Source of the DNA: Patescibacteria group bacterium
GTDB lineage: Bacteria > Patescibacteriota > Patescibacteriia > 2-01-FULL-39-33
Reading direction: 5' to 3'
Assembly (NCBI GenBank): GCA_041650895.1
Contig: JBAZKF010000001.1
Span: 145,685 to 209,684 of the forward strand
Length of the DNA stretch: 64,000 nucleotides
The position numbers and the translations under genes were made by a program. Positions 27,833 to 64,000 of this stretch are shown here, piece by piece; position 1 is the first letter of the stretch, and each line of letters starts with the position of its first letter. A model generated the notes under the pieces. That model was not told the origin of the DNA and did not search any database. It saw only the letters and a list, made by a program, of their open reading frames with translations.

Positions 27833-29251
27833 ATGACAAAAAAAATACTGCTAATTAACCCTGCCCAGTTTCAACCGATCGCCGCCAATCAGCCAGAAAT
27901 CTACGACAAAGAAATAGATTACCTGCCGTCATTGGGAATTTTATATTTGGCTTCCTATTTGAAAAAATTCGGTAATCATGAAATCAAAATTGCGGATTGC
28001 GGCGTAGAAAATATCAGTTACGACGGAATTGGCGATATCGCCAAAGATTTTAAACCGGATATAGTCGGTATAACCGCTTTAACTTTCGTCCTATTAGACG
28101 TCATAGCCATTATTAAAGCGATCAAAACGTCATTTCCCGGGACTTTAATCGTTCTAGGCGGTCCTCATCCGAATTTATACCCCAATGAAACCATTAACCT
28201 GCCCGGAGTGGATTTCATTGTCCTGGGCGAAGGCGAAAAACCGTTTAAGGAGTTGATTGATAATATTGATGATCGCGAAAAATTAAAAACAACACCTGGA
28301 TTGATCTTTAAACTTAATGGAGAAATAATCAACACCGGCCATTGCGAATTAATCAGCAATTTGGACGAATTGCCTTTTCCAGCTCGACAACTGACAAAAT
28401 ATGACAAGTATTTTTCTATCATCGCGCAAAAATCTCCGGTTACCACTATGTTCACTTCTCGCGGCTGTCCTTACCGCTGCCTGTTTTGCGATCGGCCGTA
28501 TTTAGGGAAAATTTTCCGCGCTCGCAGCGCCAAAAACGTCGTTGATGAAATGGCAGAGATTAAAAAAATGGGGATTGAAGAAATCTTCATCTATGACGAC
28601 ACCTTCACCATTAATCGCCAGAGAACTATCGACATTTGCCACGAAGTAATTAACAGAAAATTAGAAATCAATTGGGATATCCGCGCTCGCGTCAATACGG
28701 TTGATGAAGAGGTGCTTCACTGGCTAAAAATAGCCGGCTGCCGGAGAATCCATTTCGGCGTTGAAGCGGGAACTCAAAAGATACTTGATATACTCAAAAA
28801 AGATATCACGCTGGAGATGGTGGAAAAAGTAATCGGCTGGACAAAAAAAGAGGGCATTGAAACCCTCGCCTACTTCATGATCGGCAATCCTTCGGAAACC
28901 TTGGCCGACATTGAACAAACAATAGCATTCGCCAAAAAGATTGATCCGGATTATATTAATGTTTCTATTACCACTCCTTTCCCGGGCACCCAGTTATACG
29001 ATCAGGCTCTGGAAACAGGCATCATCAAAAGCGATGTCTGGAGGGAATTCGCGGCCAACCCTTCAACGCAATTCATTCCGCCGTTATGGACGGAGAATTT
29101 CTCCCGCGACGAGCTGATCGGCTTAATGCGTCAATTCTACGGTTCTTTCTACCGACGCCCCAAATATATCATCAAAAAACTTCTGGCCGTCAAATCCTGG
29201 GGCGAGTTAGTCAGAAAAGCCAAGGCCGGCTGGCAAGTATTAAAATTCTAA
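27833..29251 (+). CDS. B12-binding-domain radical SAM enzyme (class B), paralogue rS1
   Basis: 472 aa. N-terminal VLGGPHPNLYP...VLGEGEKPF (cobalamin-domain signature), SRGCPYRCLFC (CX3CX2C), and C-terminal FYGSFYRRPKYIIKKL. Confidence 0.9.
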   Translation: MTKKILLINPAQFQPIAANQPEIYDKEIDYLPSLGILYLASYLKKFGNHEIKIADCGVENISYDGIGDIAKDFKPDIVGITALTFVLLDVIAIIKAIKTSFPGTLIVLGGPHPNLYPNETINLPGVDFIVLGEGEKPFKELIDNIDDREKLKTTPGLIFKLNGEIINTGHCELISNLDELPFPARQLTKYDKYFSIIAQKSPVTTMFTSRGCPYRCLFCDRPYLGKIFRARSAKNVVDEMAEIKKMGIEEIFIYDDTFTINRQRTIDICHEVINRKLEINWDIRARVNTVDEEVLHWLKIAGCRRIHFGVEAGTQKILDILKKDITLEMVEKVIGWTKKEGIETLAYFMIGNPSETLADIEQTIAFAKKIDPDYINVSITTPFPGTQLYDQALETGIIKSDVWREFAANPSTQFIPPLWTENFSRDELIGLMRQFYGSFYRRPKYIIKKLLAVKSWGELVRKAKAGWQVLKF

Positions 29252-29254
29252 AAC

Positions 29255-30682
29255 CTATTTAAGGACGTTTTTAAAAATGTTAAGTCCCAGCAGAATATCT
29301 TTCAAGTCTGCCAGGGACTTGATTTTTTTTAGCCGATAAATAATATATTTCGGACGTAAATAAAACTTAATAAAGGCTTTGCGTTTTAATTTCAGCAGGG
29401 TATCACTGCTTAAATCGGGCAAATCCATCGGCGGTATATGATTGGAGACTGAACAAAAATCACTCCAATCAAAATCTTTCCTGATGTATCCGCGAGCCTT
29501 TGCTTCTTCATACATGGGAGTTCCCGGATAAGGAATGGCAACAAAAAAGGCTGCTGTGTCCAGATCCAAGCTACAAGCAAAATCAATCGTCTGATTAACC
29601 GTCCAAGGATCTTCGTCAATATAACCAATAATGAATGCTCCGGAAACCAAGATGTCGTTTTTACGGCATAAGTCAACGGCTATTCTAGCTTGTTCCAGTG
29701 TGGCGCCCTTGCACATCTTATCTAAAATTCTCTGCGAGCCCGATTCAAAACCAAAACCGATCCTTTTACAGCCGGCCCGTCTCATTAACTTGAGCATTTC
29801 ATTATTTACCGAATCAACTCTGGCCATAACCACCCAAGAGATATCCAGCTTCCGCCGGATAATCTCTTCACAAAATTCCTTCACTCTATCTTTATTAGCC
29901 GTAAAGAGTTCGTCATGGAAATTAAAAGAAGTAGCCTGGTAATTTTTCATGCATTCTTCAATCTCGGCCAAAACATTACTCACACTCCTAGTACGATAGC
30001 GCCTTTTCCAAACTGATTCCGCCATGCAAAAACCGCAACGATAAGGACAGCCGCGGCCGGATATGATATTAATCGCCTGCCCCGAGTCCGTCGTTCTGGT
30101 CGGCGGCAAGTAATACTTTTCAACCGGCAATAAATCACGAGCCGGGAACGGTATGGTATCAAGATTATCAATCAGCGGGCGGGGTTCTGTTATTAATATT
30201 TCAGCATTATCGCGATAAGCGATGCCTTTAATCACCCCGAAATCGACTTGCTCGGATATTAAGGCGCGGATTAATTCCAAAAAAGTGACTTCCCCTTCGC
30301 CCAAGACGCAAAAATCTATTGCCGGCATACCCCGCATTGTTTCTTCGGCGGCAATTGTCGGATGTGGCCCGCCGACAATGATTTTTATTGCGGGATTAAT
30401 GACTTTTATCCGCCGCGTAATTTCTTTGAGTTGTTTATAGACAGGCGTGGGGAAAGTCAAAGCGATAAATTGCGGCATGATTTCCTTAATCTTTTCATCT
30501 ATCTGATCATAGGACATTTCCAATGCCTCACCGTCAAGAATTGTTATTTCTACTTCCTGTTCATATTGGCGCAAATAAGCCGCCAGATAAGCCAAATTAA
30601 GCGGAGCGGTTTTCCCACCCTGCCCTTCGATACCGTCATAATTAGTGAAAGGCGGATTAATCAATAAAAGTTTATACTTCAT
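29255..30682 (-). CDS. B12-binding-domain radical SAM enzyme (class B), paralogue rS2
   Basis: 475 aa. IVGGPHPTIAA...VLGEGEVTF, GRGCPYRCGFC, C-terminal FIKFYLRPKYIIYRL. Confidence 0.9.
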   Translation of the reverse strand: MKYKLLLINPPFTNYDGIEGQGGKTAPLNLAYLAAYLRQYEQEVEITILDGEALEMSYDQIDEKIKEIMPQFIALTFPTPVYKQLKEITRRIKVINPAIKIIVGGPHPTIAAEETMRGMPAIDFCVLGEGEVTFLELIRALISEQVDFGVIKGIAYRDNAEILITEPRPLIDNLDTIPFPARDLLPVEKYYLPPTRTTDSGQAINIISGRGCPYRCGFCMAESVWKRRYRTRSVSNVLAEIEECMKNYQATSFNFHDELFTANKDRVKEFCEEIIRRKLDISWVVMARVDSVNNEMLKLMRRAGCKRIGFGFESGSQRILDKMCKGATLEQARIAVDLCRKNDILVSGAFIIGYIDEDPWTVNQTIDFACSLDLDTAAFFVAIPYPGTPMYEEAKARGYIRKDFDWSDFCSVSNHIPPMDLPDLSSDTLLKLKRKAFIKFYLRPKYIIYRLKKIKSLADLKDILLGLNIFKNVLK

Positions 30683-31653
30683 AAGTCGGTCTTTTTAAAA
30701 AAATTCTTTACGGGTAAAAAAATAGCAATTAAAATTAATAAATAAGCGAGACTAAACAAATGTACTATGAAACCAGAAATAATAGACGCTTCCTTATTTA
30801 AGCCTAATAGTCCGAAGCTGATAGCCCAACCTGTTTCATAAGTTCCGAAGTCCCACAATCCCTGGATAGGCAAAAAACTTATTAATTGACTAAAAATCAA
30901 ACCCAGAGTTACTTTAAGCCAGTTAAAATCTATATTTAGGGCACGGAAAAAAACTACGATCATTAAAGAAGCGGACGCCAGCCACAAGAACGAAATCAAC
31001 AAATTAGTCAAGTAAACGGGCCAGGAACGAATTGTTTTGACGCTTGTTGCAACCTCTTCCAACTTAGTAGCCAGCTTAGCGCCAAATTGAAATTTAGTCA
31101 ATCTTGCCCAATGCATTAAAATAACAACCGCTTTAACCAGCCAATCAAGGTAGAATAATATGGCAATCGTGGCTAACCCAAGCATAAAACAGCTTAGATA
31201 GATTCTATTAGGCGGAATGTAGCCGGGGTTAAGCAAAATAAAACCGATCAGAAAAGAAAAAGCCACTGCCAAAAGATCAAAAAATCTGGCTACCAACAGG
31301 ACACTAAGCCCTTCTGCTATGGCTACATTCTCACGTTTTTTTATGAAATAAACAAAACTTAACTCACCGCTTCTAAACGGCATTAAATTACAAAAAAAAG
31401 TATAACCCAAAGTAATTTTCAAGGAACTCAAAAAACTTATTTTCTTAGAAAGAATCAAGACTTGCCAGCGCCAAGCCCGCAAACAAACGCCGATAAAATA
31501 AAAAATAAACGCGATTAAAGCGTAAGTCCATGATATATTTGAAATAATATCCCTGGCTTGAGTGAAATCAATCTGAGTTAAAAGCAAACACAATAAAATT
31601 ATGGTTACGGCCAAGGAGATTGTTTTTTTGCGCTTGGTTATCTTTTTCAACAT
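30679..31653 (-). CDS. UPF0104 / lysylphosphatidylglycerol-synthase-TM-region (flippase-like) family membrane protein
   Basis: 324 aa with about 8 TM helices. Includes LRAWRWQVLI and FCNLMPFRSGELSFVYF. Start and stop overlap the neighbouring genes (ATGA, TAATG). Confidence 0.65.
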   Translation of the reverse strand: MLKKITKRKKTISLAVTIILLCLLLTQIDFTQARDIISNISWTYALIAFIFYFIGVCLRAWRWQVLILSKKISFLSSLKITLGYTFFCNLMPFRSGELSFVYFIKKRENVAIAEGLSVLLVARFFDLLAVAFSFLIGFILLNPGYIPPNRIYLSCFMLGLATIAILFYLDWLVKAVVILMHWARLTKFQFGAKLATKLEEVATSVKTIRSWPVYLTNLLISFLWLASASLMIVVFFRALNIDFNWLKVTLGLIFSQLISFLPIQGLWDFGTYETGWAISFGLLGLNKEASIISGFIVHLFSLAYLLILIAIFLPVKNFFKKTDL

Positions 31654-33488
31654 TATTTTATCAAGTTAAGAAACCACATCTTGCCGGGACTGGTTTCAGC
31701 TTCTATTATTCCCGCCTGAGGCCAATCGACAATGTTTATCGCTTGGCTACTGGAGGAAATCTGCCCCGCTAATTCAGCATCATAACCAATTATATATTTT
31801 ACATTATAAACGTCAAAAGCCGACTGAAGTTTTTGCTCCTGCAATAAATGGTTGATAGTATTCGGAGAAAAATAGACAGTTGATACTCCGGTTAAATAAT
31901 TCAACAGAGGATGCAATGACCTATTGCCTACGGCCACCGCCTCTTCCGGTTTGATGGCGACACCCCAAGAACTGATTTGCTCAGCTGAATAAGCAATTTT
32001 CAAATTTATATTATTATCATATCCCCGGCCCCAATAGACATGATTAGCCTGGACTAAGCCATAAATGATTAAAAGAATAATCACCCCGCCGGCCAGCCGA
32101 CTAAATCTCTTTGCAACATAATAATCGCTGATCATCTTAGCTAAGCTCATCAAGCCCAGACTGATAAAAAGAGCAATCACCCAACCCCAATCCATTAAAT
32201 GATTGCGTGAGGCCAGAACGACGTAACTGGAAATAAAAATAGAAAACACCAGCCAACTGACAAAAAGATTGGTTAGATTCTTGTCTCGACGACTCAAGTC
32301 TTTAATACCCAATAACATTAAAATAAAAAACAGTGATCCGCCAATATACTCCAAGGCGAGAAATCGAGAAAGATGCGCCAGCAGATTATTGGATCCGACA
32401 AGAGCCCGCTCCGCCAAATTGATGGGGCGTATGCCGATATTGGCCCCCACCTTAATCAAGTCAATGCTCTTCAATAATCCTCGACCAGCTATGTCGGAAT
32501 TAAATTTGTCTAAAACCGTTTTCTGATCAAAATAAAAAGTATAGGGATCGGGGAAAAGATGGCCGTAAAAATTAAACTCAGACCAATTATTGGTTTGCGT
32601 CTCGCTGGCAAAAAACACCCTGAAATAATCATTATTACCGCTAAAACCGAATATCGCCGGCAACCAGAAAAAAGCTAATATTACAAAAAAAGGAACAAAC
32701 ACCAAACTGATGTTTCCAAGACTGCTTTTGACGGCATTGTTCCTTAAACCGGTTAAGACGGTTTTAAAACGTAACCAAATCAATCGGAAAAAAGACAAAT
32801 CCGTACGGGAATCGATAATAAGGGGTTGCTCTGAGGACTGAAAAATCAACCAAAAAAATAAAACTGGCGGAAATAAGAACATCACTTCCCGCGACAGGCA
32901 AGCTAGCGACAAAAAGACTCCGGACAAAGGCAGAAAAAAATATCTGCCCTTGACTTTACGGCCGATAAAAAACAAAACGCAAAAAACTGAAAAATACAGC
33001 ATCGCGAATTCGTAGGTGCCGATAGTTTGAACCATCTGGGAATTAAACGGCAATAAGATATAAACCAAAGAAAATATTGCGGCTATTTCCCAATCAAACA
33101 AATAAAACACGACGGCCGCAAATAAAACCAAAGCCAATGCCTGAATAATTACGGCAATGACTATTAAAGTGTTGAAATCTGGCAAGCCGATCAACTGAAA
33201 TAATGCAGCATAAGACCAGGTAGTAAACTTATTGCCCTGGGTACTGAGCTGAGCCCGCTGGCTGACTAAAGACGGCGCCAAAACGACATTGCGGCTGTCC
33301 TCCATGCCGTAAACCCCCGTTTGGACAAGATTCCTGGCCAAAATAAAATTCTCCGCTTCGGCCGGTTGGGCAGTACTGCCCTTAAAAAAAACCGGAAAAT
33401 ACCAAAAACCGGCTGCAACAAAAAAAACTACGGGCAATAAAACAAAAAGAATCGAGCTCTTAAACCTAAAATTTGGCTGTTGCGACAT
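31653..33488 (-). CDS. GT-C-like (ArnT/PMT_2-like) polytopic membrane glycosyltransferase, putative
   Basis: 611 aa with more than 12 TM helices. It has an acidic first loop, AEAENFILARNLVQTGVYG, and a C-terminal soluble segment of about 100 aa. Confidence 0.5.
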   Translation of the reverse strand: MSQQPNFRFKSSILFVLLPVVFFVAAGFWYFPVFFKGSTAQPAEAENFILARNLVQTGVYGMEDSRNVVLAPSLVSQRAQLSTQGNKFTTWSYAALFQLIGLPDFNTLIVIAVIIQALALVLFAAVVFYLFDWEIAAIFSLVYILLPFNSQMVQTIGTYEFAMLYFSVFCVLFFIGRKVKGRYFFLPLSGVFLSLACLSREVMFLFPPVLFFWLIFQSSEQPLIIDSRTDLSFFRLIWLRFKTVLTGLRNNAVKSSLGNISLVFVPFFVILAFFWLPAIFGFSGNNDYFRVFFASETQTNNWSEFNFYGHLFPDPYTFYFDQKTVLDKFNSDIAGRGLLKSIDLIKVGANIGIRPINLAERALVGSNNLLAHLSRFLALEYIGGSLFFILMLLGIKDLSRRDKNLTNLFVSWLVFSIFISSYVVLASRNHLMDWGWVIALFISLGLMSLAKMISDYYVAKRFSRLAGGVIILLIIYGLVQANHVYWGRGYDNNINLKIAYSAEQISSWGVAIKPEEAVAVGNRSLHPLLNYLTGVSTVYFSPNTINHLLQEQKLQSAFDVYNVKYIIGYDAELAGQISSSSQAINIVDWPQAGIIEAETSPGKMWFLNLIK

Positions 33489-33497: not shown

Positions 33498-34586
33498 TTA
33501 CTTTAAATGAAAATTCCCAAAAACCGCCCTAAACAAATGCCAAGGGCTCATCATAATATTAGGAAGTTGATAACAATAATGAGTACACCAACATTTCTTA
33601 TTCTTAATATCTAACCGTTGCTGTTTCGCAAGGGATGACTGCCAGGCCTTTCTAAAATCATAATCATAATCCCGCAGATTACCTATCTTGGGCAACATTT
33701 CGCAATTATACATATTACCCCAAGCGTCAATAACGGGGAAAAATAAAGCTGAGCGGCAAGGTAGGATTTGTTTTTTTTGCTTCATTATTTTTAATGCTAT
33801 CTTATGGTAATAAGCATAAAACAGCTTATTGGCCAAATCATTGGCCAATGTCTTACTCTTGAATAAAACACGGCTAAGCAATTCCTCATATTGCCCCAAA
33901 TCTACGGGTGCGATTTTTTGCGGGTCAAACGAACCGCGGATTACTTCAATCGTATGATATGTGATGCCGGGATGCTGATCAACAAAATCAATCACCGCGG
34001 CGATATTATCTTGGTTTACATTAGAAATAGTGGTATTAACACTGACCTGCAACAACTCATTAGTCTTAGCGATAGCCGTCAATTTCTCATACGTATCCAA
34101 AAAAAGCTTAAAGTTTCCAGCTATTCCTCTTACCCGATCATGCACCTCTCCGATTCCGTCCAGAGATAGGACTACTTTTAGTTTTATTGGCACGCGAACC
34201 AGTATCCTTTCGACTTGATCCGCTATCTTATCCGGCAAAAGACAATTAGTCGGTATGGCAATTTTTCTAGTGGCGCTGCAACGGTAAAAAATCTCGCAAA
34301 TTTCCGGCAAATCCGGCCGCAAAAACGGTTCACCTCCACCCAAAGTAACGCTTCTTATGTCGCCAATGGTTTGGGTAAATTTTTCTATTTCCGCTAAAGA
34401 AAGCTCCTTAGTTTCCGTGTTTATCACTTGCCAGTTAAAACACATTAGACAACGGGAGTTGCACTTGTTGGTTACTTGAAAAATTAATCCGTAAAGCGGC
34501 CATTCCCTTTTTGATAAAGAATAGAAATAGAACTTGCTTACAGGAAAATATTGTTTAATTATTTTTAATCGTTTAATAAAATCCAT
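33498..34586 (-). CDS. Radical SAM enzyme with Cys-rich SPASM/twitch-like C-terminus (no B12 domain)
   Basis: 362 aa. VTNKCNSRCLMC (CX3CX2C), GGGEPFLRPD, C-terminal LPCRS...YNCE...KKCWCTHYC. Confidence 0.8.
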   Translation of the reverse strand: MDFIKRLKIIKQYFPVSKFYFYSLSKREWPLYGLIFQVTNKCNSRCLMCFNWQVINTETKELSLAEIEKFTQTIGDIRSVTLGGGEPFLRPDLPEICEIFYRCSATRKIAIPTNCLLPDKIADQVERILVRVPIKLKVVLSLDGIGEVHDRVRGIAGNFKLFLDTYEKLTAIAKTNELLQVSVNTTISNVNQDNIAAVIDFVDQHPGITYHTIEVIRGSFDPQKIAPVDLGQYEELLSRVLFKSKTLANDLANKLFYAYYHKIALKIMKQKKQILPCRSALFFPVIDAWGNMYNCEMLPKIGNLRDYDYDFRKAWQSSLAKQQRLDIKNKKCWCTHYCYQLPNIMMSPWHLFRAVFGNFHLK

Positions 34587-41096: not shown

Positions 41097-41125
41097 ATTA
41101 TAACAGAAAATACACAATTAATCAA
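41097..41125 (-). promoter_or_regulatory. Candidate internal promoter in the only sizeable gap (63 nt) of the minus-strand array
   Basis: On the minus strand: TTGATT (41125-41120, overlapping the GT9 stop), a 17-nt spacer, then the extended -10 TGtTATAAT (41105-41097). A second TATAAT lies at 41076-41071. Confidence 0.4.
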
Positions 41126-45021: not shown

Positions 45022-45034
45022 TTTATCGATTAAG

Positions 45035-56589: not shown

Positions 56590-57172
56590 ATAAATTCAAA
56601 CCTAATTCGAAGCTGCCGCCGGTGATTTTATCGGCCGCAAAGCCGGTGGCGGAAAACTGTTTAAATAATTCCTGTCGACTATAGAACTGCTGATGCTCAC
56701 CGATCTCATCCGGTGAAACTATTTTAAACGCGGCCAATAACGACAGCAGACCCTTAGTTTTTCCCCAGGGAGTCGTCACTATAAGCAACCCGCCGGGAAC
56801 AAGCGCTCGATAAGATTGAGCCAGAATATTTAAAGCCGCGGTTTCATCCAAATGTTCCAAAACTGCCAGCATGGTTACAACATTAAAACAACTGGGACTG
56901 ACCGGCAAATTATCGCCGGTTTTGAATTCGTATTTTTTTAAGCTAACTCCGTCGATCATTCCTTCGCTGACCGATTTATCCAATCCGACTTTGGCCGAAA
57001 ACTTAACCTGCGCCAAAAAATAAGGATAAGAACCGCAGCCGATATCAAGAATAGCTCCCGACCTTAAATCAGCAGGAATCAACCTGTCAACTTTATTAGC
57101 CCGACGCCGGGCCAAGTATTTCTCTAAGACGCCATACCCCCTGGTAGGAGCGGCGGAACCGGTTATTTCCAT
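56570..57172 (-). CDS. Class I SAM-dependent methyltransferase
   Basis: 200 aa. ILDIGCGSYPY, FNVVTMLAVLEHL, LVPGGLLIVTTP. Confidence 0.8.
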   Translation of the reverse strand: MEITGSAAPTRGYGVLEKYLARRRANKVDRLIPADLRSGAILDIGCGSYPYFLAQVKFSAKVGLDKSVSEGMIDGVSLKKYEFKTGDNLPVSPSCFNVVTMLAVLEHLDETAALNILAQSYRALVPGGLLIVTTPWGKTKGLLSLLAAFKIVSPDEIGEHQQFYSRQELFKQFSATGFAADKITGGSFELGLNLYAIAKK

Positions 57173-57858
57173 AAGTTAAACTTAATAATATACCAAATCG
57201 CCGCCAAACCATCTTTCCAGCTTATTTTCTTGCCCTCTTCATAAGTGCGGCCGGCATAAGAAATACCGACTTCATAAATCCGGAATTTACCCCTGGCTAT
57301 CAGGGCGGTAATCTCCGGTTCAACGCCGAATCGATTGGCAGTCAGGCGAGTTTTCAGATAATCAATAACCGGACGATTGAACGCCTTATAGCAAGTCTCC
57401 ATATCTGTTAAGGTCAAATTACTCATAATATTGGAAAAAATAGTCAAAAAAGTATTACCCAGATAATGCCAAAAAAAGAAAACACGGTGAGGTTTGCTGG
57501 TAATGAAACGAGAACCATAAACAACATCAGCCTTGCCGTCAATTATCGGCCCCAATATTTCCTGGTACTCTTGCGGATTGTATTCTAAGTCAGCGTCTTG
57601 AATAATCAATAGATCGCCGGTTGCCACATTAAGGCCACGTTTGATGGCCGAGCCTTTGCCCTCGTTCTTATCCTTTAGAATTACGACGCATTTATCCCGC
57701 GGGCTTGAAATAATATCTCTAGTGCCGTCGGTGGAACCATCATCAATAATAATAATTTCCTTCTCTACGCCGGCAAGCGGCGCTGCCTCCACCTGGCGCA
57801 GTAGTTCCAAGATAGTTTTATGTTCATTATAGACTGGTATGATAACTGACAATTTCAT
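57163..57858 (-). CDS. Glycosyltransferase family 2, polyprenyl-phosphate sugar synthase-like (231 aa, paralogue of 49069..49764)
   Basis: LSVIIPVYNEHKTI, IIIDDGSTDGT, NEGKGSAIKRG, IQDADLEYNP, and C-terminal EEGKKISWKDGLAAIWYIIKF. Confidence 0.85.
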   Translation of the reverse strand: MKLSVIIPVYNEHKTILELLRQVEAAPLAGVEKEIIIIDDGSTDGTRDIISSPRDKCVVILKDKNEGKGSAIKRGLNVATGDLLIIQDADLEYNPQEYQEILGPIIDGKADVVYGSRFITSKPHRVFFFWHYLGNTFLTIFSNIMSNLTLTDMETCYKAFNRPVIDYLKTRLTANRFGVEPEITALIARGKFRIYEVGISYAGRTYEEGKKISWKDGLAAIWYIIKFNLWK

Positions 57859-57873: not shown

Positions 57874-59346
57874 TTAATCGCGTTTAGTATTGATGTCCGG
57901 AGATTTAGGCAAGAAAAAAGAGACTAAAGCCATAAAACCATCAAACAAAATTTTTATATCGTCTAATGATCTAATGCTAAAAATCTTCTTAAGGATGAAT
58001 TTCGGACGAAAATAAAAACTGCGATACATGATTTTATATAAATTCTTTATTTCTTCCGCTGAAAGATTCTCCAATCTCATAACCGGCTTAGCCAAATTAA
58101 AATCATCCCAATTTTCGCTCAACAACAAATCACGTTCCTTGGCCCAATTAAACATGGCCGTGCCGGGAAACGGCGTAGTAATATTGACGATCAGCAAATC
58201 GGGATTTATTTTCTTAACAAAACGGATGTTCTTTTCAATCACTTGGCGACTGTCGCCGGGATTGCCGACCATGAAAGCCAGACGGCATTCTATCCCCGCC
58301 TGCTTAGTCCATTTGACGGCATTGATCACTTGCGGCAAATTGATTTTTTTATTGATATTCTTCAATACGGCCTCATCAACATTTTCCACCCCATACATGA
58401 TCTGATGACAACCGGCGTCTGACATTTTCCGCAACATGGCCTCGTCAACATAATCAACTCGGGCAAAACACGTCCAAGACAAATCCATTTTATTTTTTAT
58501 CAGCAGATCGCACAAGTCAATGACGTTCTGACGAAAAACAGTAAAAGTATCATCATAAAACATGATCTGCCTGATACCGTAATTATCGGCCAAGTATTTT
58601 ATCTCGGCAAAAATCCCGGTGGCCGACTTAAAGATCATCTGATCACCCAAGGTTTTATTGCAGAAAGTGCAACGCCCCGGACAACCTCGGCTAGTCATTA
58701 AACTCATGGCCGGCAACTTCTTATACGAGCCCTTAGCCGGCCGATATTTATCAATCGGCAATAAATCATAAGCCGGCAAAGGCAGATCATCCAAATTGGC
58801 AATCCGCCGACGCGGCGCGTTACGGATTATTTGTTTTTCGCCATTCAATTCTTTCTTATAAACCACGCCGTCAATCTCTTCAATCTTCTTGCCGGATAAT
58901 ATTTCTCCCAAAGTAATCTCCCCTTCGCCGATAACCACCGCATCAACAAATGGTTGATTAATAACCTCATCAGTAACAAAGGTTGCATGAACGCCACCGA
59001 AAATAATCAAAGCATTAGGATAATATAATCGGCAAATTTCCGCCGCCTGATAAGCCTTTTTAATTTGTCCGGTGGTGGCAGTAAAGCCGATCACTCTAAT
59101 ATCCCTGTGATGATCAACAAAATTTTCCTTTAGATAATCGCCGAAGGCCTGGACCGAGGGGCAGGAAACTTCACAATCAATTATCTCTACACTTTGATCC
59201 TGTTGACGGACATAGCCGGCAATGGAAGCCAGCCCCAAAGGAGGGAAATTTGAGTTAATCTCACGCCAAATATTATTCTCATCGCCATAATAATCAGGCG
59301 GAGCGATCAACAAACAATCCAAATTTTTTTGATTATCTTGCGACAT
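57874..59346 (-). CDS. B12-binding-domain radical SAM enzyme (class B), paralogue rS9
   Basis: 490 aa. IFGGVHATFVT...VIGEGEITL, SRGCPGRCTFC, C-terminal MYRSFYFRPKFILKKI. Confidence 0.9.
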   Translation of the reverse strand: MSQDNQKNLDCLLIAPPDYYGDENNIWREINSNFPPLGLASIAGYVRQQDQSVEIIDCEVSCPSVQAFGDYLKENFVDHHRDIRVIGFTATTGQIKKAYQAAEICRLYYPNALIIFGGVHATFVTDEVINQPFVDAVVIGEGEITLGEILSGKKIEEIDGVVYKKELNGEKQIIRNAPRRRIANLDDLPLPAYDLLPIDKYRPAKGSYKKLPAMSLMTSRGCPGRCTFCNKTLGDQMIFKSATGIFAEIKYLADNYGIRQIMFYDDTFTVFRQNVIDLCDLLIKNKMDLSWTCFARVDYVDEAMLRKMSDAGCHQIMYGVENVDEAVLKNINKKINLPQVINAVKWTKQAGIECRLAFMVGNPGDSRQVIEKNIRFVKKINPDLLIVNITTPFPGTAMFNWAKERDLLLSENWDDFNLAKPVMRLENLSAEEIKNLYKIMYRSFYFRPKFILKKIFSIRSLDDIKILFDGFMALVSFFLPKSPDINTKRD

Positions 59347-59351: not shown

Positions 59352-61559
59352 TTAAAGGAATCGACTAAAAAACGCTCTGAATCCGTCACTGGTCAACAAC
59401 CATAAATAGTCAACCAAAACAATAACGATAACGACCGCAACCCGACTCGGCCAGCGGTAAAAATATTTTCTTAACCCGTTAACGGCCAACAAGGTTAATA
59501 GCAAAGCCAGGACAAAATACAAACGAGATGACACACCGGTCCAAAGCAAAAACATAAACGACGGCAGAATCAGGCACTTAACCAGGAACCTCTGATCGGC
59601 GGTAAACTCCCGCCATTTAATCAATCCTAACGGCACCAAAAGCCAAGCAGCCAGATAAACGCCGACGATACTCTTAACAACAAAAAACGGCTGATATTCG
59701 GAACCGCTGGGAGCGCTAATGCCCAGTTTATACCAATCCAAATATGAATAATGATAAATGAAATAAACCACGATTTGCCAAGCGATTAAGGGCAAGCCGA
59801 CCGCTAAGGTTGATAAAAATAATTTTTTGAGTTTTTCGGCTCGAGGCAGTTGCGGATGGAAACATATCACCAGATACAGGAAAGCCATACCCAAACTGCT
59901 ATATTCTTTCCATAACATGCCAACAACAACCATCAACGAAGTTAAAAATAAATTAAAGTTGTTAGGCCGTTTATAAAATCTAATGACGCCGATAGCGGCC
60001 AAAACCCAGAATAATTGGGCGCCCGACTCGGTAAACAAATCCAAGCCATACTTAAGTAACGGATAGGAAGAAATATAAATCAACGCTCCCAGAAGCGCCA
60101 TTCCTCTATTTTTAAAAAACAAATAAAATAAAACGTAAACGGCTAAAGCCAAAAAAACATAAAATATAATCGCCTCTATCTCAAAAGCTAACGATAGATT
60201 GCCACCGGTTAAAAACGACAGTCCGGCAATACCCATAGGCCCCAACGGTTTTAAAATTCTGGAAGGAAAACTCTCCGCCATTTGTCCCATAAACAGCTTA
60301 GCCGTTTCCATATACTGATAAGCATCGCCGTTAATGCTAAAACCGACAAAATTGAGCCGAATAAACACGTTCAACGCTACCGCGGTTAAGATTAAAAGAA
60401 TCGGCCAAAAATGATTATTGGTCGACTTGGTCGGCCGGCACTTTTTGTCTATGGCTGTTTGCCAGCTTTTCAGATAAAGCGCCAAATTTTCCTCTCGGCC
60501 GGGCAAAATGTTAATCGCCGATTCGGCCGACTGGCTGAGTTGCCGGCGCAAGCCAATATTCTGAATAATCTTTTTCATGGCGTCAGCTAATTTTTCTTCG
60601 TCGCCAACGGGCGTGATTAATGCGCTGACTCCGTCTTTCAACACCTCACCGGCGCAACCGACATCAGTCATCACTACCGCCAAACCGCAACTGGCGGCTT
60701 CTATTATCACCATCCCCCAACCCTCATAATCAGAACTCAAAACATAACTATCGGCTGAGTTGTAATAATCATAAATATTGTCAGTCCAACCGATCAAAAA
60801 GATTTTATCCTCCAAGCCGGATTCTTTTATTTGTTGGGCGAGTTTGTCTTTTTCCGGACCGCGACCGACTATAAGCAAAACCGCCTCCGGCAATTGCCGG
60901 GCAACCGTGGCGAAAGCTCTGATCAGCAACGGCAGATTTTTCTGTTTTACCAATCGAGCCATAGTCAAAAAAACAGTTTTGCCGACTAAGCGGCCGAAAA
61001 TCTCCGGCTTAGTTTCGCTGAATTGCTTCTCGGGCTTAACATAGACAGGAACAACAACAATTTTATCTTCGGCTATATGCAAATCATTAACCAAAGTATC
61101 CTTTATCCGCTCACTGACTGCGCGCACGCTGTCGGCTCGCTTAATCAGCCAGCGCCCCAGATAATAACGGCAAAAGTTAATAGGATTTTCATTGCGCCAA
61201 TAAGTCGCGCTAAAAAAATCGCCATGTTCCTGAATATTCAAAGCGCTCTTGAATTTCCTAGCCAGCAATAATCCCATCAGCGACAATTCAAAAGGATCTT
61301 GAACCGTTATGACATCATAATTATTCTGGCGGAACAGTTTTTTCGCTAACCGATACATATTGAATAGTGCCGCTAATCGGTTGCCGCCACCCGTGCCGTA
61401 AGCCGTTACTTTTTCTGATAATTTAATTTCTTGCGCTGGCGTAGCGGGCACGATAATATCATAAGCGTCCGTCATAACGCCATACTCAATCAAACGCCGA
61501 GTTACGGGTGATGAGGAAACGAATACGCCTTTATCGGTGCCTAAGTTTAATACTTTCAT
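59352..61559 (-). CDS. Fusion protein: N-terminal GT4 glycosyltransferase + C-terminal polytopic membrane (GT-C-like) domain
   Basis: 735 aa. Residues 1 to about 370 are GT-B (KQKNLPLLIRAF...SDYEGWGMVIIEAASCGLAVVMTDVG). Residues from about 385 onward are about 11 TM helices, starting at NHFWPILLILTAVALNVFIRL...INGDAYQYMETAKL. Confidence 0.8.
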   Translation of the reverse strand: MKVLNLGTDKGVFVSSSPVTRRLIEYGVMTDAYDIIVPATPAQEIKLSEKVTAYGTGGGNRLAALFNMYRLAKKLFRQNNYDVITVQDPFELSLMGLLLARKFKSALNIQEHGDFFSATYWRNENPINFCRYYLGRWLIKRADSVRAVSERIKDTLVNDLHIAEDKIVVVPVYVKPEKQFSETKPEIFGRLVGKTVFLTMARLVKQKNLPLLIRAFATVARQLPEAVLLIVGRGPEKDKLAQQIKESGLEDKIFLIGWTDNIYDYYNSADSYVLSSDYEGWGMVIIEAASCGLAVVMTDVGCAGEVLKDGVSALITPVGDEEKLADAMKKIIQNIGLRRQLSQSAESAINILPGREENLALYLKSWQTAIDKKCRPTKSTNNHFWPILLILTAVALNVFIRLNFVGFSINGDAYQYMETAKLFMGQMAESFPSRILKPLGPMGIAGLSFLTGGNLSLAFEIEAIIFYVFLALAVYVLFYLFFKNRGMALLGALIYISSYPLLKYGLDLFTESGAQLFWVLAAIGVIRFYKRPNNFNLFLTSLMVVVGMLWKEYSSLGMAFLYLVICFHPQLPRAEKLKKLFLSTLAVGLPLIAWQIVVYFIYHYSYLDWYKLGISAPSGSEYQPFFVVKSIVGVYLAAWLLVPLGLIKWREFTADQRFLVKCLILPSFMFLLWTGVSSRLYFVLALLLTLLAVNGLRKYFYRWPSRVAVVIVIVLVDYLWLLTSDGFRAFFSRFL

Positions 61560-61567
61560 CTCAATAA

Positions 61568-63013
61568 TTATTTAGTAATAAATTTCTTGGCCAATTTAAA
61601 TTCCACCGGCCAGAAAAAAAATTTCAATTTCCAACGCAGTTTACATAAACAAATAAAACAGAATTTGAGTAATTTATTGGAAGAGACAGTTGAATTCATC
61701 GCGCTCTTGAATGACAAGGCGCCGAATCTGACATAGGCCTCCATTGATTCCACAAAGTCCTTGTCCTTAACCCAAGGAAAATTCTCTACTGACATGTAGC
61801 TCAACTCGTTCTCTGAAACCTTTTTCCATTCCTCAAGCGACTGCGGTTCCCGCCAGCCGGCCTTGACGCATTCCTCATATAACTCTGATCCGGGGTAGGG
61901 GCGAAACGCTTGAGGGCCCAAAATCTGGACCTCGTCGCTTAAGGCGATTAAGCGATCAATCAACCTCAGGGTTTCCTGCATATCACTCCGCGACTCGCCA
62001 GGCAAACCAATCATGAATGAATACTGAGGTATGATGCCATGCTTGAGGCAGGCCTTAGCGGAAGCGACTATGTCATCGGCGGTAACGTCTTTTTTGATCA
62101 TTTTTAAGATACGGCTACTGCCGGATTCGGCGCCGAAAGACAACAAATAACAGCCGGACTGCTTTAACTTGGCTAAAAGTTCATCATCCACCATCCCCGG
62201 CTTAAGGTAATCGGCGCGAATAGTGGTTTCCCAAGGCAAAACCAGATCTTCCCTAATCATGCCGTCAATGATCGCCTTAGCGCGGCTGATATCCACAAAA
62301 AAGTTCTCGTCCCAAAAACGCAATTTCTTGCCCTGGAAATACTCCTTGGCCTTAATTATCCGTAAATCCTCAAGCACCTGCTCGGTCGTCCGAGCGCGCC
62401 AATGATTTTTCAAAATCGCATTAATGCAAAAAGTACAACGATGCGGACAACCGCGCGAAGTTAGAGAAGGAATCAAATATAGATGCTCTCTGATTTCCTG
62501 AGGCACTAAATCCCAATTAAATAACGGCATGGCTTGGGGTTGATGCAGGGGTTGCGGCTGATTGACAATAACTCTCCCGTCAGCGCAATAAGCGAGGCCT
62601 TTGATTTCTGCCAGGGATCGGCCTCGCGCCAACTGCAACATGGTTTCTTCGCCTTCGCCGATAACTACTATATCAATCAGCGGATTTTTGGCTGTCTGCT
62701 CAATAAAAAAAGTCGGATGCGATCCGCCCCAAACAATTTGGGCGGCGGGATTGATTCTTCTGGCCAACTCGGAGATTTTCAAGGCATTGGAGATCTGCAT
62801 GGTCATAACTGAAACACCGATCAAATCAAAATCCTTAATCGCTTGCTCCAATAAGCTCAAATAATCCTTCTGCCTGACGCCGTCTATCATCTTGACCTCC
62901 ACTCCTTGACTATCTAAGTAGGTGGCAATACTCAACAAACCGACAGAAATAGAGCTGTCGTAATTATCTTTAACTATATTAAATTCGGGATTGATCAGTA
63001 AAACTTTTTTCAT
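61568..63013 (-). CDS. B12-binding-domain radical SAM enzyme (class B), paralogue rS10
   Basis: 481 aa. VWGGSHPTFFI...VIGEGEETM and SRGCPHRCTFC. Confidence 0.9.
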   Translation of the reverse strand: MKKVLLINPEFNIVKDNYDSSISVGLLSIATYLDSQGVEVKMIDGVRQKDYLSLLEQAIKDFDLIGVSVMTMQISNALKISELARRINPAAQIVWGGSHPTFFIEQTAKNPLIDIVVIGEGEETMLQLARGRSLAEIKGLAYCADGRVIVNQPQPLHQPQAMPLFNWDLVPQEIREHLYLIPSLTSRGCPHRCTFCINAILKNHWRARTTEQVLEDLRIIKAKEYFQGKKLRFWDENFFVDISRAKAIIDGMIREDLVLPWETTIRADYLKPGMVDDELLAKLKQSGCYLLSFGAESGSSRILKMIKKDVTADDIVASAKACLKHGIIPQYSFMIGLPGESRSDMQETLRLIDRLIALSDEVQILGPQAFRPYPGSELYEECVKAGWREPQSLEEWKKVSENELSYMSVENFPWVKDKDFVESMEAYVRFGALSFKSAMNSTVSSNKLLKFCFICLCKLRWKLKFFFWPVEFKLAKKFITK

Positions 63014-64000
63014 TGCATTTTTTTCAATAAATCAACGGTTTGATCCACTGTCTGCCGCCAAGAAAAATCTTTCAGCTTGACTGTTGCCGCTTCGGTCAGC
63101 TTTTGAGCCAAAGGACGGTCAGTCAATAGTCGGAAAATCGCTTCAATTAATTGTTTTTGATTATTGTAGTTTACCAGCAAGCCGTTCTGGCCGTCTGTAA
63201 TAACCTCGGGATTGCCGCCGACGTCAGTGGCGATTACCGGCGCCCCGGCTTTTATGGCTTCCAATAATGTATGGGACAGGCCTTCATAATTGGTGTTTAA
63301 AACAAAAACATCGGCGTGACTGAAATATTCCAAAACTTTTTCATGCGGTACGCGATCAAGAAACTTTATTTGCTCGGCCAGTTTCAAAGACTGAGCCAGG
63401 TTCTGCAGATTCTCTAACTCCGGACCATCGCCCAAAACGATCAAATAGGCCCGACCCAAACGCTTGATGATTTCCGGCATCGCCCGGATTAATTGATCCA
63501 CGCCCTTCCATTTGGTTAACCGGCAAGCCGTCATAATTATGGAACCGTCGTTAGGCAGATTAATGGGGGCTGATTTATTAACGCTAACCTCATCGCCAAA
63601 ATCAATCGCATTATATATGACATTTATTTTGGCTAAGTCAACGCCGATCAGCTTGGCCAAATCGCCCATAAAATTGCTGACGGCAATAATCGCATCGGCT
63701 TCCAATAATATCCGGCGGCGACGCGCTTTCATTCTTTCAATTTGTTGATTATAAATATTCTTTTCAAAGTCGGTGATGTAATCGGTTGTCCAGCCGTTAG
63801 CGGTGGCTGTTTCCCAGGCGGCATCGCCGGCAAACCTGACTAAATATTTTTTCTTGGTTATTTTTTTTATCAAATTGGCAAACCAGCCGACACTGTAGAT
63901 ATCGGTTACATAAATCAGGTCGGCGTTAAAAGACAGGAAAAGCATAGCCAAAAAATAATGCAACCGACTGAAAACTTTATTTTTTGCCACTCGATAAACG
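63010..64000 (-). CDS. Glycosyltransferase family 4 (5' end probably beyond the right window edge)
   Basis: The track starts it at GTG 63990, but the frame stays open to position 64000 and the N-terminal Rossmann half looks about 70 aa short. C-terminal NYEGLSHTLLEAIKAGAPVIATDVGGNPEVITDGQNGLLV (EX7E). It has an ATGA overlap with rS10. Confidence 0.75.
   Translation of the reverse strand, partial: VYRVAKNKVFSRLHYFLAMLFLSFNADLIYVTDIYSVGWFANLIKKITKKKYLVRFAGDAAWETATANGWTTDYITDFEKNIYNQQIERMKARRRRILLEADAIIAVSNFMGDLAKLIGVDLAKINVIYNAIDFGDEVSVNKSAPINLPNDGSIIMTACRLTKWKGVDQLIRAMPEIIKRLGRAYLIVLGDGPELENLQNLAQSLKLAEQIKFLDRVPHEKVLEYFSHADVFVLNTNYEGLSHTLLEAIKAGAPVIATDVGGNPEVITDGQNGLLVNYNNQKQLIEAIFRLLTDRPLAQKLTEAATVKLKDFSWRQTVDQTVDLLKKMQ

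Follow-up and report, generated by a model that had tools for sequence, protein, structure and literature searches.

The DNA examined here (the window) is a 64,000-nucleotide stretch of contig JBAZKF010000001.1 (assembly GCA_041650895.1) from a Patescibacteria group bacterium, a member of the Candidate Phyla Radiation (CPR) with a genome of roughly 1 Mb, and it carries a glycan-type locus in which twelve radical S-adenosylmethionine (SAM) enzymes (rSAMs), ten of them with a B12-binding domain (B12-rSAMs), are interleaved with glycosyltransferases (GTs). The reading towards which we lean, at a little better than even probability, is that this locus assembles a lipid-linked surface glycan or glycoconjugate whose sugars are tailored by radical enzymes, in part at the polyprenyl-phosphate-sugar stage. 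The observations behind it are direct and comprise the identities and folds of the domains, the absence of any isofunctional assignment among the rSAMs, the conservation of gene order in relatives, and a set of natural gene fusions. Every domain in the locus belongs to a known superfamily, antibiotic and hopanoid pathways already include radical sugar tailoring, and finding uncharacterised rSAM genes clustered in a metagenome-assembled genome is not in itself rare; what the locus points to, on predictive grounds, is an undescribed radical sugar chemistry in the envelopes of CPR bacteria and uncultured anaerobes. An earlier note on this DNA had proposed a lipid-linked glycan or glycolipid that receives many radical-mediated tailoring steps, and this proposal, still a prediction from gene content, withstood comparison with B12-binding models, with characterised rSAM families and with the gene neighbourhoods of related genomes.

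Ten radical SAM enzymes with B12-binding domains

A motif scan of the 32 long open reading frames (ORFs) between 24.4 and 64 kb found the CX3CX2C cluster motif in exactly twelve, all within 27833-63013. Ten of these exceed the Pfam gathering cut-offs of both PF02310 (B12-binding, 32.1 bits) and PF04055 (Radical_SAM, 29.5 bits), scoring 40.7-89.9 and 61.7-109.8 bits, respectively, and the other two are non-B12 enzymes, in agreement with the counts of the earlier note. The ten B12-rSAM genes occupy 41.6% of 27833-64000. The first by position is the only one on the plus strand (27833-29251; PF02310 83 bits, PF04055 94 bits); it has the cluster motif CPYRCLFC and all three cobalamin-contact motifs described below, and scores 252 bits against the HpnJ model (cut-off 577.6). 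The remaining nine lie on the minus strand. The second (29255-30682; 80 and 80.4 bits) is the last gene of a long operon and scores 243 bits for BchE (cut-off 481), the third (35551-36975; 40.7 and 76.6 bits) has a degenerate cobalamin motif with FEAE in place of GEGE, and the fourth (39562-41058; 82.1 and 61.7 bits) reaches 98.7 of the 360 bits required by a ladderane-type lipid rSAM model. The fifth (42255-43670; 77.3 and 91.5 bits) scores 225 bits against the same BchE cut-off of 481, while the sixth (43672-45021; 44.1 and 83.9 bits) carries the degenerate motifs IGSH, IITSTP and GEPE. The seventh (47611-49050; 89.9 and 89.6 bits) forms the centre of a conserved module, the eighth (51550-53709; 57.2 and 109.8 bits) is a 719-residue protein with a C-terminal MetW-like class I methyltransferase (72.2 bits), the ninth (57874-59346; 65.2 and 74.9 bits) scores 218.8 bits for HpnJ against 577.6, and the tenth (61568-63013; 75.7 and 78.1 bits) belongs to a CPR-wide orthogroup. 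The sixth gene was initially delimited as ORF 43672-45207, but its start is most likely the ATG at 45021, giving 449 residues, because a 91%-identical relative (L010; related loci are designated by L numbers) has a 449-residue orthologue; this start also removes the overlap with the neighbouring fusion gene.

Structures of OxsB, TsrM and TokK define three cobalamin-contact motifs, namely GxS/TxX in the beta3-alpha3 loop, GG in beta4 and GE in alpha5 (PMC9204698). All three are present in eight of the ten paralogues; 35551-36975 and 43672-45021 are degenerate and also have the two weakest PF02310 scores, barely above the cut-off. The earlier note had credited all ten with a GGxHxT...GEGE signature followed by SRGCPxxCx(F/Y)C, of which the second part holds in nine, whereas the first proved too strict: GGxHxT occurs in five and GEGE in seven, with an eighth GEGE (42255-43670) visible in the alignment.

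Pairwise identity among the ten is only 23-37%, whereas orthologues from other phyla reach 43-55% for 47611-49050 and 27833-29251. This comparison rules out a recent duplication of the ten, and it indicates that old, distinct lineages have been assembled in one place rather than a recent tandem array or a chance cluster. None of the twelve rSAMs reaches an isofunctional NCBIfam cut-off: the best scores of the ten B12-rSAMs are 99-252 bits against cut-offs of 360-750 (HpnJ, BchE, ApyD and the ladderane rSAM). Below cut-off, matches spread broadly over class B enzymes (HpnJ, BchE, ApyD, PhpK, BzaD, ladderane-type, HpnR, AprD4 and MgmA-type), with HpnJ the top match for five paralogues and BchE for three; the AprD4 model cut-off is reached by none of the window proteins, and NCBIfam listed no GenK-specific model. 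HpnJ, the most frequent top match, was missing from the precedents cited in the earlier note (GenK, GenD1, Fom3 and HpnP).

An AlphaFold (AF2) model of the 47611-49050 product, built on 30 orthologues, has a predicted local distance difference test (pLDDT) score of 91.9, and a Foldseek search of the PDB returned AprD4 with its sugar substrate as the best match (E 2e-27, TM-score 0.72), followed by MgmA (a cobalamin-dependent glutamine C-methylase), OxsB, CysS, TsrM and TokK at TM-scores of about 0.7. At the level of a predicted structure, this superposition confirms a class B two-domain fold for 47611-49050, and, with PF02310 above its cut-off in all ten proteins, it bears out the assignment of the N-terminal domains made in the earlier note.

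AprD4 is a class-B-like enzyme that works without cobalamin, and it is the best PDB match by sequence as well as by structure. The B12-like domains of some or all ten proteins could accordingly be cofactor-free scaffolds, in which case the enzymes would be cobalamin-independent dehydratases, oxidoreductases or isomerases that have no need of B12 and yield mainly deoxy or keto sugars instead of C-methylated ones. The degenerate GG and GE motifs of 35551-36975 and 43672-45021, both near the PF02310 threshold, would fit such a role, as would the usual lack of corrin synthesis in CPR genomes and the absence of a cobalamin riboswitch from the window. Retention of all three contact motifs in eight paralogues nevertheless argues for cofactor binding, as do the PF02310 scores of eight proteins, which at 57-90 bits lie well over the cut-off; moreover, the sequence match of 47611-49050 to AprD4 is limited to the rSAM core (query residues 176-395), whereas the match to MgmA takes in the GG and GEGE segments. 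Cofactor-free function is, in our judgement, a rather unlikely explanation of the set.

The protein 61568-63013 belongs to a superfamily of great size, most of it unstudied: among 1.84 billion cluster representatives searched with it, 29,569 matched at E<=1e-10, of which 4,271 reached E<=1e-30. A review of class B enzymes likewise describes unexplored sequence space (PMC9204698). Among the relatives are giant proteins that match the 481-residue query in two to four stretches (P0340, 2331 residues; P0346, 2096; P0358, 2279; P0361, 1879; P0390, 1497) and that look, from these alignments, like tandem-fused class B rSAM modules in single polypeptides.

A conserved module of glycosyltransferases and radical enzymes

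The arrangement that ties the rSAMs most closely to glycan assembly is a four-part module consisting of a small GT2 resembling polyprenyl-phosphate-sugar synthases, a B12-rSAM, a GT-C and a SPASM-rSAM. In the window it is encoded on the minus strand by a soluble 231-residue GT2 (49069-49764; GT2 122.7 bits), its partner B12-rSAM 47611-49050, and an 854-residue fusion (45035-47599) in which a GT-C (residues ~1-505) continues into Radical_SAM and SPASM domains, with PMT_2, Radical_SAM and SPASM all above cut-off (SPASM, PF13186, 30.4 against 21.5 bits). The best NCBIfam matches of this GT2 are AglJ, ArnC and PpgS, with a dolichyl-phosphate (Dol-P)-hexose transferase also listed, all below cut-off. 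Across the four small GT2s of the locus, AglJ, ArnC, PpgS, PgfS and the Dol-P-hexose transferase recur among the NCBIfam matches and head the list for three; since all five are polyprenyl-monophosphate-sugar synthases, the small GT2s would probably serve as donor synthases.

The N-terminal part of the fusion has the features of a GT-C: it is polytopic, matches PMT_2 and keeps a conserved acidic residue in its first outside loop. In 21 homologues the segment D65-W-H-P-P...Y-Y, which follows the first transmembrane helix and resembles the 'KPPLxYW' loop of ArnT/PMT_2 enzymes, is invariant. The 854-residue architecture recurs in independent assemblies at 84% and 81% identity and in four further clusters at 48-52%, and is therefore not an assembly artefact. 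Structural matches of its SPASM-type rSAM domain include BlsE, DesII and BtrN. The second non-B12 rSAM (33498-34586, minus strand; 362 residues; PF04055 54.7 bits; cluster motif CNSRCLMC) shares 28% identity over its core with the fusion's rSAM domain, and the two tails do not align. The earlier note had assigned SPASM/twitch-like tails to both enzymes; this holds for the fusion, whereas 33498-34586 has a Cys-rich tail (CX18C...CXCX3C) that gives no match to PF13186.

Two other proteins were considered as GT-C enzymes and set aside. The 611-residue polytopic membrane protein 31653-33488 (minus strand; about ten hydrophobic segments) scores 18.9 bits for PMT_2 against a cut-off of 26.1 and matches neither a GT-C profile derived from the locus nor NCBIfam or the PDB, although it may be a very divergent member; for the C-terminal half of 59352-61559, Pfam gave no match. 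The earlier note had counted three GT-C-like domains, of which one is firm; 31653-33488 stays below the PMT_2 threshold, and the C-terminus of 59352-61559 has no assigned family. The protein 30679-31653 is flippase-like, of the LPG_synthase_TM/TIGR00374 type.

Orthologues of 47611-49050 are 64-91% identical within the CPR and 47-55% identical in Elusimicrobia, Woesearchaeota and Nitrospirota. The order GT2/B12-rSAM/GT-C is found in CPR loci L001, L005, L010, L011 (Portnoybacteria) and L017 (Falkowbacteria, with GT2 and GT-C fused), in which the SPASM-rSAM is usually also present, and outside the CPR in Elusimicrobia (L012, L014) and Woesearchaeota (L009); the module is kept at least in part in further Elusimicrobia (L007, L015) and in Nitrospirota (L023). 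A GT2 of the 49069-49764 type adjoins the orthologous rSAM in L001, L005, L010, L011, L012 and L014, and a related small GT2 does so in L009. The way in which the parts are joined varies: GT-C and SPASM-rSAM are fused in the window, all four parts are separate genes in L005, a GT2-GT-C fusion accompanies separate B12-rSAM and SPASM-rSAM genes in L017, and in L095 a 1076-residue protein unites GT2, GT-C and SPASM-rSAM beside the B12-rSAM. Three fusion types thus occur, namely GT-C+rSAM+SPASM, GT2+GT-C+rSAM+SPASM (about 1080 residues) and GT2+GT-C (about 700 residues).

Conservation extends beyond the module. L010 (91%) has both fusions and runs collinear with the window for 21 kb, whereas L005 (74%) has the same order with GT-C and SPASM-rSAM as separate genes and likewise the MetW-type methyltransferase and its rSAM; the rSAM-MetW fusion of 51550-53709 also occurs in L010 and L091. 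L095, 23 kb in length, follows the same blueprint and has five B12-rSAM genes that are complete and a sixth that is partial. A second pair, GT2 57163-57858 and B12-rSAM 57874-59346, is kept in L044 (68% and 66% identity, respectively) and also in L010, L091 and L095. In a wider survey of 85 non-redundant related loci, made with crude home-made profiles that render GT-C counts lower bounds, 61 contain one or more GTs within 10 kb; B12-rSAMs number at least two in 38 loci and at least five in 5. The linkage of rSAM and GT genes, whose conservation the earlier note had put forward as a test, is found in independent assemblies and across phyla. Elsewhere in the survey, L069 (Desulfobacterales), L083 (Caldilineae), L078 (Omnitrophota) and L068 (Smithella) pack four to six B12-rSAM genes into about 20 kb with few or no GTs by profile, and in these arrays the enzyme family seems to serve another purpose, just as uncharacterised.

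A further conserved element is centred on 61568-63013. Among the best 120 clusters listed at 90% identity, 119 are 66-86% identical to it and one is 58% identical; nearly all of these are 477-505 residues long, their sources being Buchanan-, Magasanik-, Terry- and Portnoybacteria and other Patescibacteria, and beyond them no full-length relative exceeds 46% identity. In L091, L092 and L093, the relatives whose neighbourhoods were inspected, the orthologue sits between GT4 genes, and a head of the order Wzy_C, GT4, GT4, B12-rSAM, GT4 is conserved in Buchananbacteria, Magasanikbacteria and other CPR bacteria, with the Wzy_C protein of about 750 residues found upstream in L091 and L093. The gene itself has a GC content of 45.2% (53.5% at third codon positions), similar to housekeeping genes, whereas the remaining locus averages 41.4%, which is consistent with an old core gene amid a more variable tailoring region. 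Its 66-86% identity across many CPR lineages suggests that radical sugar tailoring is a core feature of the envelope rather than an ornament. In L092 (Ca. Magasanikbacteria, GCA_000996105.1), the interval 3558-8920 directly upstream of the head encodes a UbiA prenyltransferase, a DUF6580 protein, a 450-residue B12-rSAM, an oxidoreductase of the flavin adenine dinucleotide (FAD)/amine-oxidase type and a 385-residue protein without a family, and may be a lipid-carrier or isoprenoid-modifying sub-cluster.

A glycosylated peptide or protein was also considered as the product, in which case rSAMs of the ApyD, SkfB or anSME kind would modify a ribosomally synthesised and post-translationally modified peptide (RiPP) or a protein and the GTs would then glycosylate it. 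ApyD is within the top three NCBIfam matches of several paralogues, SkfB, SuiB and anSME are top structural matches of the SPASM-type domain, and PMT_2-type GT-C and Wzy_C/PglL-type enzymes can glycosylate proteins. The ApyD scores, however, are 75-192 bits against 750, and the rSAM_ocin_1 and sactipeptide models are likewise below cut-off; the operon, with a largest intergenic gap of 63 nucleotides, leaves no room for a precursor gene, and the locus contains no leader peptidase, RiPP recognition element or exporter. Together with an initiating glycosylphosphotransferase, Wzx, GtrA and GT2s of the polyprenyl-phosphate-sugar type, which are hallmarks of lipid-linked glycans, these observations make a peptide or protein pathway very improbable.

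Proposed pathway and stage of tailoring

Two textbook lipid-carrier routes, one built from a polyprenyl-phosphate glycosylphosphotransferase (PGT), GTs, Wzx and Wzy, the other from GtrA, a GtrB-like GT2 and a GT-C, provide the frame for the lipid-linked glycan reading, and it is from gene content that we infer what the enzymes act on and at which stage, what reactions they catalyse, whether they use cobalamin and which acceptor finally receives the glycan. In the first route, the PGT would start an oligosaccharide on polyprenyl phosphate, GT4, GT2 and GT9 enzymes would extend it in the cytoplasm and Wzx would flip it, after which a Wzy_C protein, seen past the window-end equivalent in a collinear relative, may polymerise or ligate it. 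In the second, for which a GtrA-family protein, a GtrB/ArnC-type GT2 and a GT-C are encoded together in the window, the small GT2s would load single sugars onto polyprenyl monophosphate, GtrA- or flippase-like proteins would move these donors across the membrane and, outside the cell, the GT-C would attach the sugar to the lengthening glycan. The module would belong to this second route: its GT2 would supply a polyprenyl-phosphate-sugar, which the radical enzymes would alter before it serves the GT-C as donor, with C-methylation, ring contraction, deoxygenation, oxidation and epimerisation as candidate modifications. The fixed position of the B12-rSAM between GT2 and GT-C, the fusion of SPASM-rSAM with GT-C and, in relatives, its fusion with GT2 and GT-C together argue that at least these two rSAMs would act on the polyprenyl-phosphate-sugar or on the immediate substrate or product of the GT-C. 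With less confidence, the remaining B12-rSAMs, most of which adjoin GT4 genes, may act on the growing lipid-linked oligosaccharide. Polar modifications would come from the class I methyltransferases and the deacetylases. More speculatively still, the fusion of a B12-rSAM with a MetW-like domain suggests that a single residue might receive both a radical and a polar modification.

Tailoring could instead take place earlier, at the level of nucleotide sugars, with the rSAMs making unusual nucleoside-diphosphate (NDP)-sugars (C-methylated, deoxy or epimerised) in the cytoplasm and ordinary GTs incorporating them, as with enzymes of the DesII, GenK and AprD4 types. The closest solved structures (AprD4, and for the SPASM-type domain BlsE, DesII and BtrN) act on soluble sugar or aminoglycoside substrates, an NDP-sugar epimerase/dehydratase is encoded in the locus, and soluble GT4 genes adjoin most of the B12-rSAM genes. 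A SPASM-rSAM fused to a membrane GT-C, and in relatives to both GT2 and GT-C, is nevertheless hard to square with a soluble substrate; the gene order kept across phyla places the B12-rSAM between the making and the using of a polyprenyl-phosphate-sugar; and the window is almost devoid of NDP-sugar pathway genes, lacking any nucleotidyltransferase or aminotransferase. A soluble nucleotide-sugar stage is accordingly unlikely in our view, though a credible alternative.

The lipid rather than the sugar could also be the target, with the rSAMs methylating, cyclising or cross-linking isoprenoid or acyl chains of a glycolipid or carrier that CPR cells cannot build de novo, and the GTs adding only a head group. 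Such a role would fit the NCBIfam matches to the hopanoid enzymes HpnJ and HpnR and to lipid rSAMs of the ladderane type (whose model heads the list for 39562-41058), the weaker matches to GDGT-MAS and Tes-type lipid rSAMs, and the UbiA prenyltransferase, B12-rSAM and FAD oxidoreductase that precede the conserved head in L092. All of these lipid-rSAM matches fall far below cut-off, however, and HpnJ itself has been assigned to a sugar rather than a lipid; the window contains no lipid-synthesis genes, and about 17 glycosyl-transfer domains together with Wzx and the PGT point to a large glycan instead of a simple head group. The probability that we attach to lipid remodelling is small.

Several points weigh against a lipid-linked glycan tailored in this way. 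Adjacency cannot separate a polyprenyl-phosphate-sugar, a nucleotide sugar, a lipid or an acceptor as the rSAM substrate, every NCBIfam match is so far below its cut-off that the reaction type is not assignable, and the case is entirely genomic, the chemistry of the rSAMs being predicted. The structural likeness to AprD4 and the two motif-degenerate paralogues mean that speaking of ten cobalamin enzymes may overstate their number; neither a cobalamin riboswitch nor a cobalamin transporter lies within the window, and CPR bacteria are generally thought unable to make cobalamin. Furthermore, just one firm GT-C is present within the window, where neither a Wzy-type polymerase or ligase nor an acceptor is seen. 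Among the 85 related loci, about a quarter show no GT within 10 kb by the crude profiles, and the dense arrays L069 (six B12-rSAMs), L083 and L068 show none at all, so that the wider enzyme family is not exclusively glycan-linked.

Comparison with known systems

Genetic precedents exist for rSAMs that act on lipid-attached sugars. In hopanoid biosynthesis, the GT HpnI adds N-acetylglucosamine to the lipid, HpnK deacetylates it and the class B enzyme HpnJ is proposed to ring-contract bacteriohopanetetrol (BHT)-glucosamine, while Cds, the calditol synthase and likewise an rSAM, takes the head group of a glycolipid as its substrate (PMC9204698, PMC13459092). MoeK5 methylates a carbon centre in moenomycin A biosynthesis and co-clusters with HpnJ and Fom3 in a published similarity network (PMC9204698). 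Of these precedents, HpnJ and MoeK5 are class B enzymes. The sugar that MoeK5 C-methylates is part of a saccharide linked to lipid phosphoglycerate.

The locus shares with the HpnI/HpnK/HpnJ branch of Burkholderia and Methylobacterium the combination of GT, deacetylase and class B rSAM, its deacetylases adjoining GTs and rSAMs. It differs in that HpnJ scores are only 88-252 bits against 577.6, with no equivalog, and in that the window lacks shc, hpnH and hpnG and instead encodes ten class B enzymes, a PGT/Wzx/GtrA/GT-C carrier system and about 17 GT domains where the hopanoid branch has one GT. GenK and GenD1 (gentamicin), MoeK5 (moenomycin) and AprD4 (apramycin) have the same enzyme class and fold and also act on carbohydrates; those antibiotic pathways, however, employ one or two such enzymes each, for secondary metabolites that actinomycetes secrete, whereas here ten are found in a primary-looking envelope glycan locus of a genome of about 1 Mb.

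On-lipid modification of a donor sugar is exemplified by ArnC/ArnD/ArnT and by the conversion of decaprenyl-phosphate-ribose to -arabinose before Emb/Aft. Unlike ArnC/ArnD/ArnE-F/ArnT, GtrA/GtrB/GtrC and DprE1/E2 with Emb/Aft, the on-lipid modifiers proposed here would be rSAMs, one class B and one SPASM enzyme per module. The system also departs from Arn and Gtr in the fusion of GT2, GT-C and SPASM-rSAM into one polypeptide in relatives and in GT2 matches that stay below equivalog cut-offs. No characterised glycosylation system of this three-component type is known to use rSAMs as on-lipid modifiers, and the literature search yielded none.

The plus-strand PGT, deacetylase with DUF3473 and FemAB-like protein of the locus have TIGR03013, TIGR03006 and TIGR03019 as best matches, as in XrtA/PEP-CTERM exopolysaccharide loci. 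Membership in that system was rejected, all three markers being below cut-off (369.7 against 393.35, 188.6 against 276.2 and 184 against 260.35 bits); no exosortase, PEP-CTERM protein, Wza or Wzc is found in the window, and the locus is only a distant relative.

Groundwater Elusimicrobia carry up to 13 rSAM genes, several with B12-binding domains, beside nitrogenase paralogues, for which a tetrapyrrole or cofactor product has been proposed (bioRxiv 10.1101/765248). Unlike those clusters with their NifHDK-like context, the present locus lacks any nitrogenase-like gene and is made up instead of rSAMs among a PGT, flippases and glycosyltransferases. The earlier note knew of no characterised glycan pathway with a comparable number of class B rSAMs, and nothing comparable for glycans appeared in the literature, but dense rSAM arrays as such have a precedent in the Elusimicrobia. 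A literature search found no description of a glycan locus rich in B12-rSAMs, of the GT2/B12-rSAM/GT-C/SPASM-rSAM module or its fusions, or of the CPR-wide GT4/B12-rSAM/GT4 head.

A wider proposal is tentative and, taken as a whole, doubtful, though not far-fetched. It holds that a conserved glycopolymer of the envelope is built in CPR bacteria and, through horizontal sharing, in other ultra-small or uncultured anaerobes (DPANN archaea, Elusimicrobia and Omnitrophota, for instance) by cobalamin-dependent and SPASM rSAM chemistry on polyprenyl-phosphate sugars between GT2 and GT-C, a chemistry that no characterised glycan pathway is known to employ, that the product contains C-methylated, ring-contracted (carbasugar-like) or rearranged residues, and that the envelope depends on scavenged cobalamin. 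If true, it would imply an envelope-level dependency on vitamin B12 in organisms thought unable to make the cofactor. The locus bears on the composition of CPR envelopes and on what episymbionts with genomes of about 1 Mb present to their hosts. For enzymology, the locus offers ten mutually distant, uncharacterised class B lineages with a constrained guess at their substrates, lipid-linked sugars, and the natural gene fusions indicate which proteins cooperate.

Other genes, extent and setting of the locus

Upstream of the rSAM genes, the locus opens on the minus strand with a GT2 (19258-20310; Glycos_transf_2 85.5 bits; MftF/EpsD-like in NCBIfam, below cut-off), a small 220-residue GT2 resembling polyprenyl-phosphate-sugar synthases (20705-21367; 165 bits against the PpgS, polyprenyl-phospho-GalNAc synthase, cut-off of 370), the NAD-dependent NDP-sugar epimerase/dehydratase (21371-22411; Epimerase and GDP_Man_Dehyd matches, dTDP-glucose 4,6-dehydratase-like below cut-off) and a small membrane protein of the GtrA family, putatively a component of a polyprenyl-phosphate-sugar flippase (22525-22992; GtrA_DPMS_TM E 1.3e-32, 112.9 against 26.1 bits). 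A plus-strand run follows. It begins with the initiating PGT (23051-24400; Bac_transf 228 bits), which passes TIGR03025 EPS_sugtrans (376 bits, cut-off 295.55) and stays below the XrtA-type model TIGR03013 (369.7 against 393.35). Next come a GT2 of GtrB/ArnC-type layout (24414-25292; 98.9 bits), whose two C-terminal transmembrane helices correspond to two hydrophobic segments within residues 231-277 and whose PpgS, PgfS, ArnC and AglJ matches are below cut-off, and a class I SAM methyltransferase (25307-26011; Methyltransf_11 73.2 bits). The run is continued by a polysaccharide deacetylase with DUF3473 (25998-26837; Polysacc_deac_1; 188.6 against 276.2 bits for TIGR03006, the XrtA-system deacetylase) and a FemAB-like acyl or aminoacyl transferase (26785-27828; Acetyltransf_6 and FemAB; TIGR03019 184 against 260.35 bits).

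All further transferase and accessory genes lie on the minus strand. Beside the second B12-rSAM is the flippase-like polytopic protein of the LPG_synthase_TM type (30679-31653; PF03706 111 bits; TIGR00374 53.5 bits, above its cut-off of 43.2). A 318-residue GT2 (34590-35546; 100 bits in Pfam), a GT4 (36984-38213; Glycos_transf_1 108.5 bits, plus Glyco_transf_4), a Wzx-type oligosaccharide flippase (38217-39551; Polysacc_synt, PF01943, 61.1 against 28.2 bits, and Polysacc_synt_3) and a GT9 of the heptosyltransferase family (41122-42258; Glyco_transf_9 62 bits; heptosyltransferase I 62.5 against 185 bits) precede the module by position. Beyond it lie a class I SAM methyltransferase (49769-50425; Methyltransf_23 and Methyltransf_11), a GT4 (50435-51577; Glycos_transf_1 91.8 bits), a further GT4 (53696-54775; Glyco_trans_1_4 62.7 bits), a polysaccharide N-deacetylase (54780-55514; Polysacc_deac_1 95.8 bits; IcaB/PgaB-like below cut-off), a fourth GT4 (55498-56589; Glycos_transf_1 74 bits) and another class I SAM methyltransferase (56570-57172; Methyltransf_23 50.8 bits). 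The second small soluble GT2 of 231 residues that resembles polyprenyl-phosphate-sugar synthases (57163-57858; 111.7 bits), partner of 57874-59346, matches AglJ, ArnC, PgfS and PpgS in NCBIfam, all below cut-off.

At the far end, a 735-residue protein (59352-61559; Glycos_transf_1 138.9 bits) combines a GT4 with a C-terminal membrane domain of about six transmembrane helices, a half without a Pfam match, and the last gene is a GT4 (63010-64000; Glycos_transf_1 148.4 bits) whose N-terminus is lost at the window end and whose L091 orthologue has 383 residues. The GT4 protein with about six transmembrane helices (731-735 residues) is kept in the window, in L091 (11455-13653) and in L095 (627-2822), always following the CPR-wide B12-rSAM. 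In the collinear L091 (Buchananbacteria; its orthologue of 61568-63013 is 86% identical), the operon goes on past the equivalent of the window end with a GT4 and a UDP-sugar dehydrogenase, then a divergent GT4 and a Wzy_C protein of 746 residues, up to unrelated ABC-transporter genes; in L091 and in L093, the Wzy_C protein of about 750 residues lies 5-7 kb past the window-end equivalent. Two relatives (L001, 13810-15657; L093, 19144-20994) carry within the locus an asparagine-synthase-type amidotransferase gene of about 615 codons that is absent from the window and may provide a variable amidation step.

Interleaved with the rSAM genes, Pfam thus recognises six GT4, three GT2, one GT9, Wzx and one deacetylase, and 27833-64000 holds three class I methyltransferase domains, two stand-alone and one fused to the 719-residue rSAM, all as counted in the earlier note; the whole locus has about 17 glycosyl-transfer domains. 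The tight packing that it described is equally evident, with 25 of the 26 junctions of the minus-strand operon either overlapping (9) or separated by at most 20 nucleotides (16) and a single gap of 63 nucleotides. The bounds of 27833-64000 that it gave were too narrow, although the locus itself is real: it begins upstream near 19258 and is truncated by the window end at 64000, and synteny with the collinear relative suggests that the full locus probably spans about 45-50 kb, or about 5% of its contig. Candidatus Buchananbacteria are the closest named relatives of two locus proteins other than 47611-49050.

Base composition was compared as a potential sign of horizontal transfer: the GC content of the locus is 41.4%, against 44.6% in the upstream housekeeping genes (MurA, MetRS, TatD and an RsmI-like methylase), a difference that is small and typical of surface-glycan loci. 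A promoter and terminator scan of 22000-31000 was uninformative, counts being equal to shuffle expectation. The only RNA genes in the window are tRNA-Val(CAC) and tRNA-Ala(CGC) at 18201-18351 on the minus strand, and no riboswitch of any kind was detected there, cobalamin riboswitches included.

Among the minus-strand genes further upstream, three ORFs (6758-8620, 12347-13312 and 15410-16177; 620, 321 and 255 residues) have no significant Pfam match; the 620-residue ORF has none in NCBIfam either, and the 321-residue ORF gives only weak thioredoxin-like matches. At the window start, ORF 3-2108 (minus strand) encodes a DEAH-box helicase, judged by eye from the translation to be HrpA/HrpB-like, which continues past the window and explains the raised GC (0.516) of the first 2 kb. 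Finally, at 13303-15209 (minus strand), a LUD-domain/4Fe-4S protein adjoins a CCG cysteine-rich protein, a pair resembling LutB/LutA of lactate utilisation that forms an energy-metabolism element within an otherwise minimal gene set.

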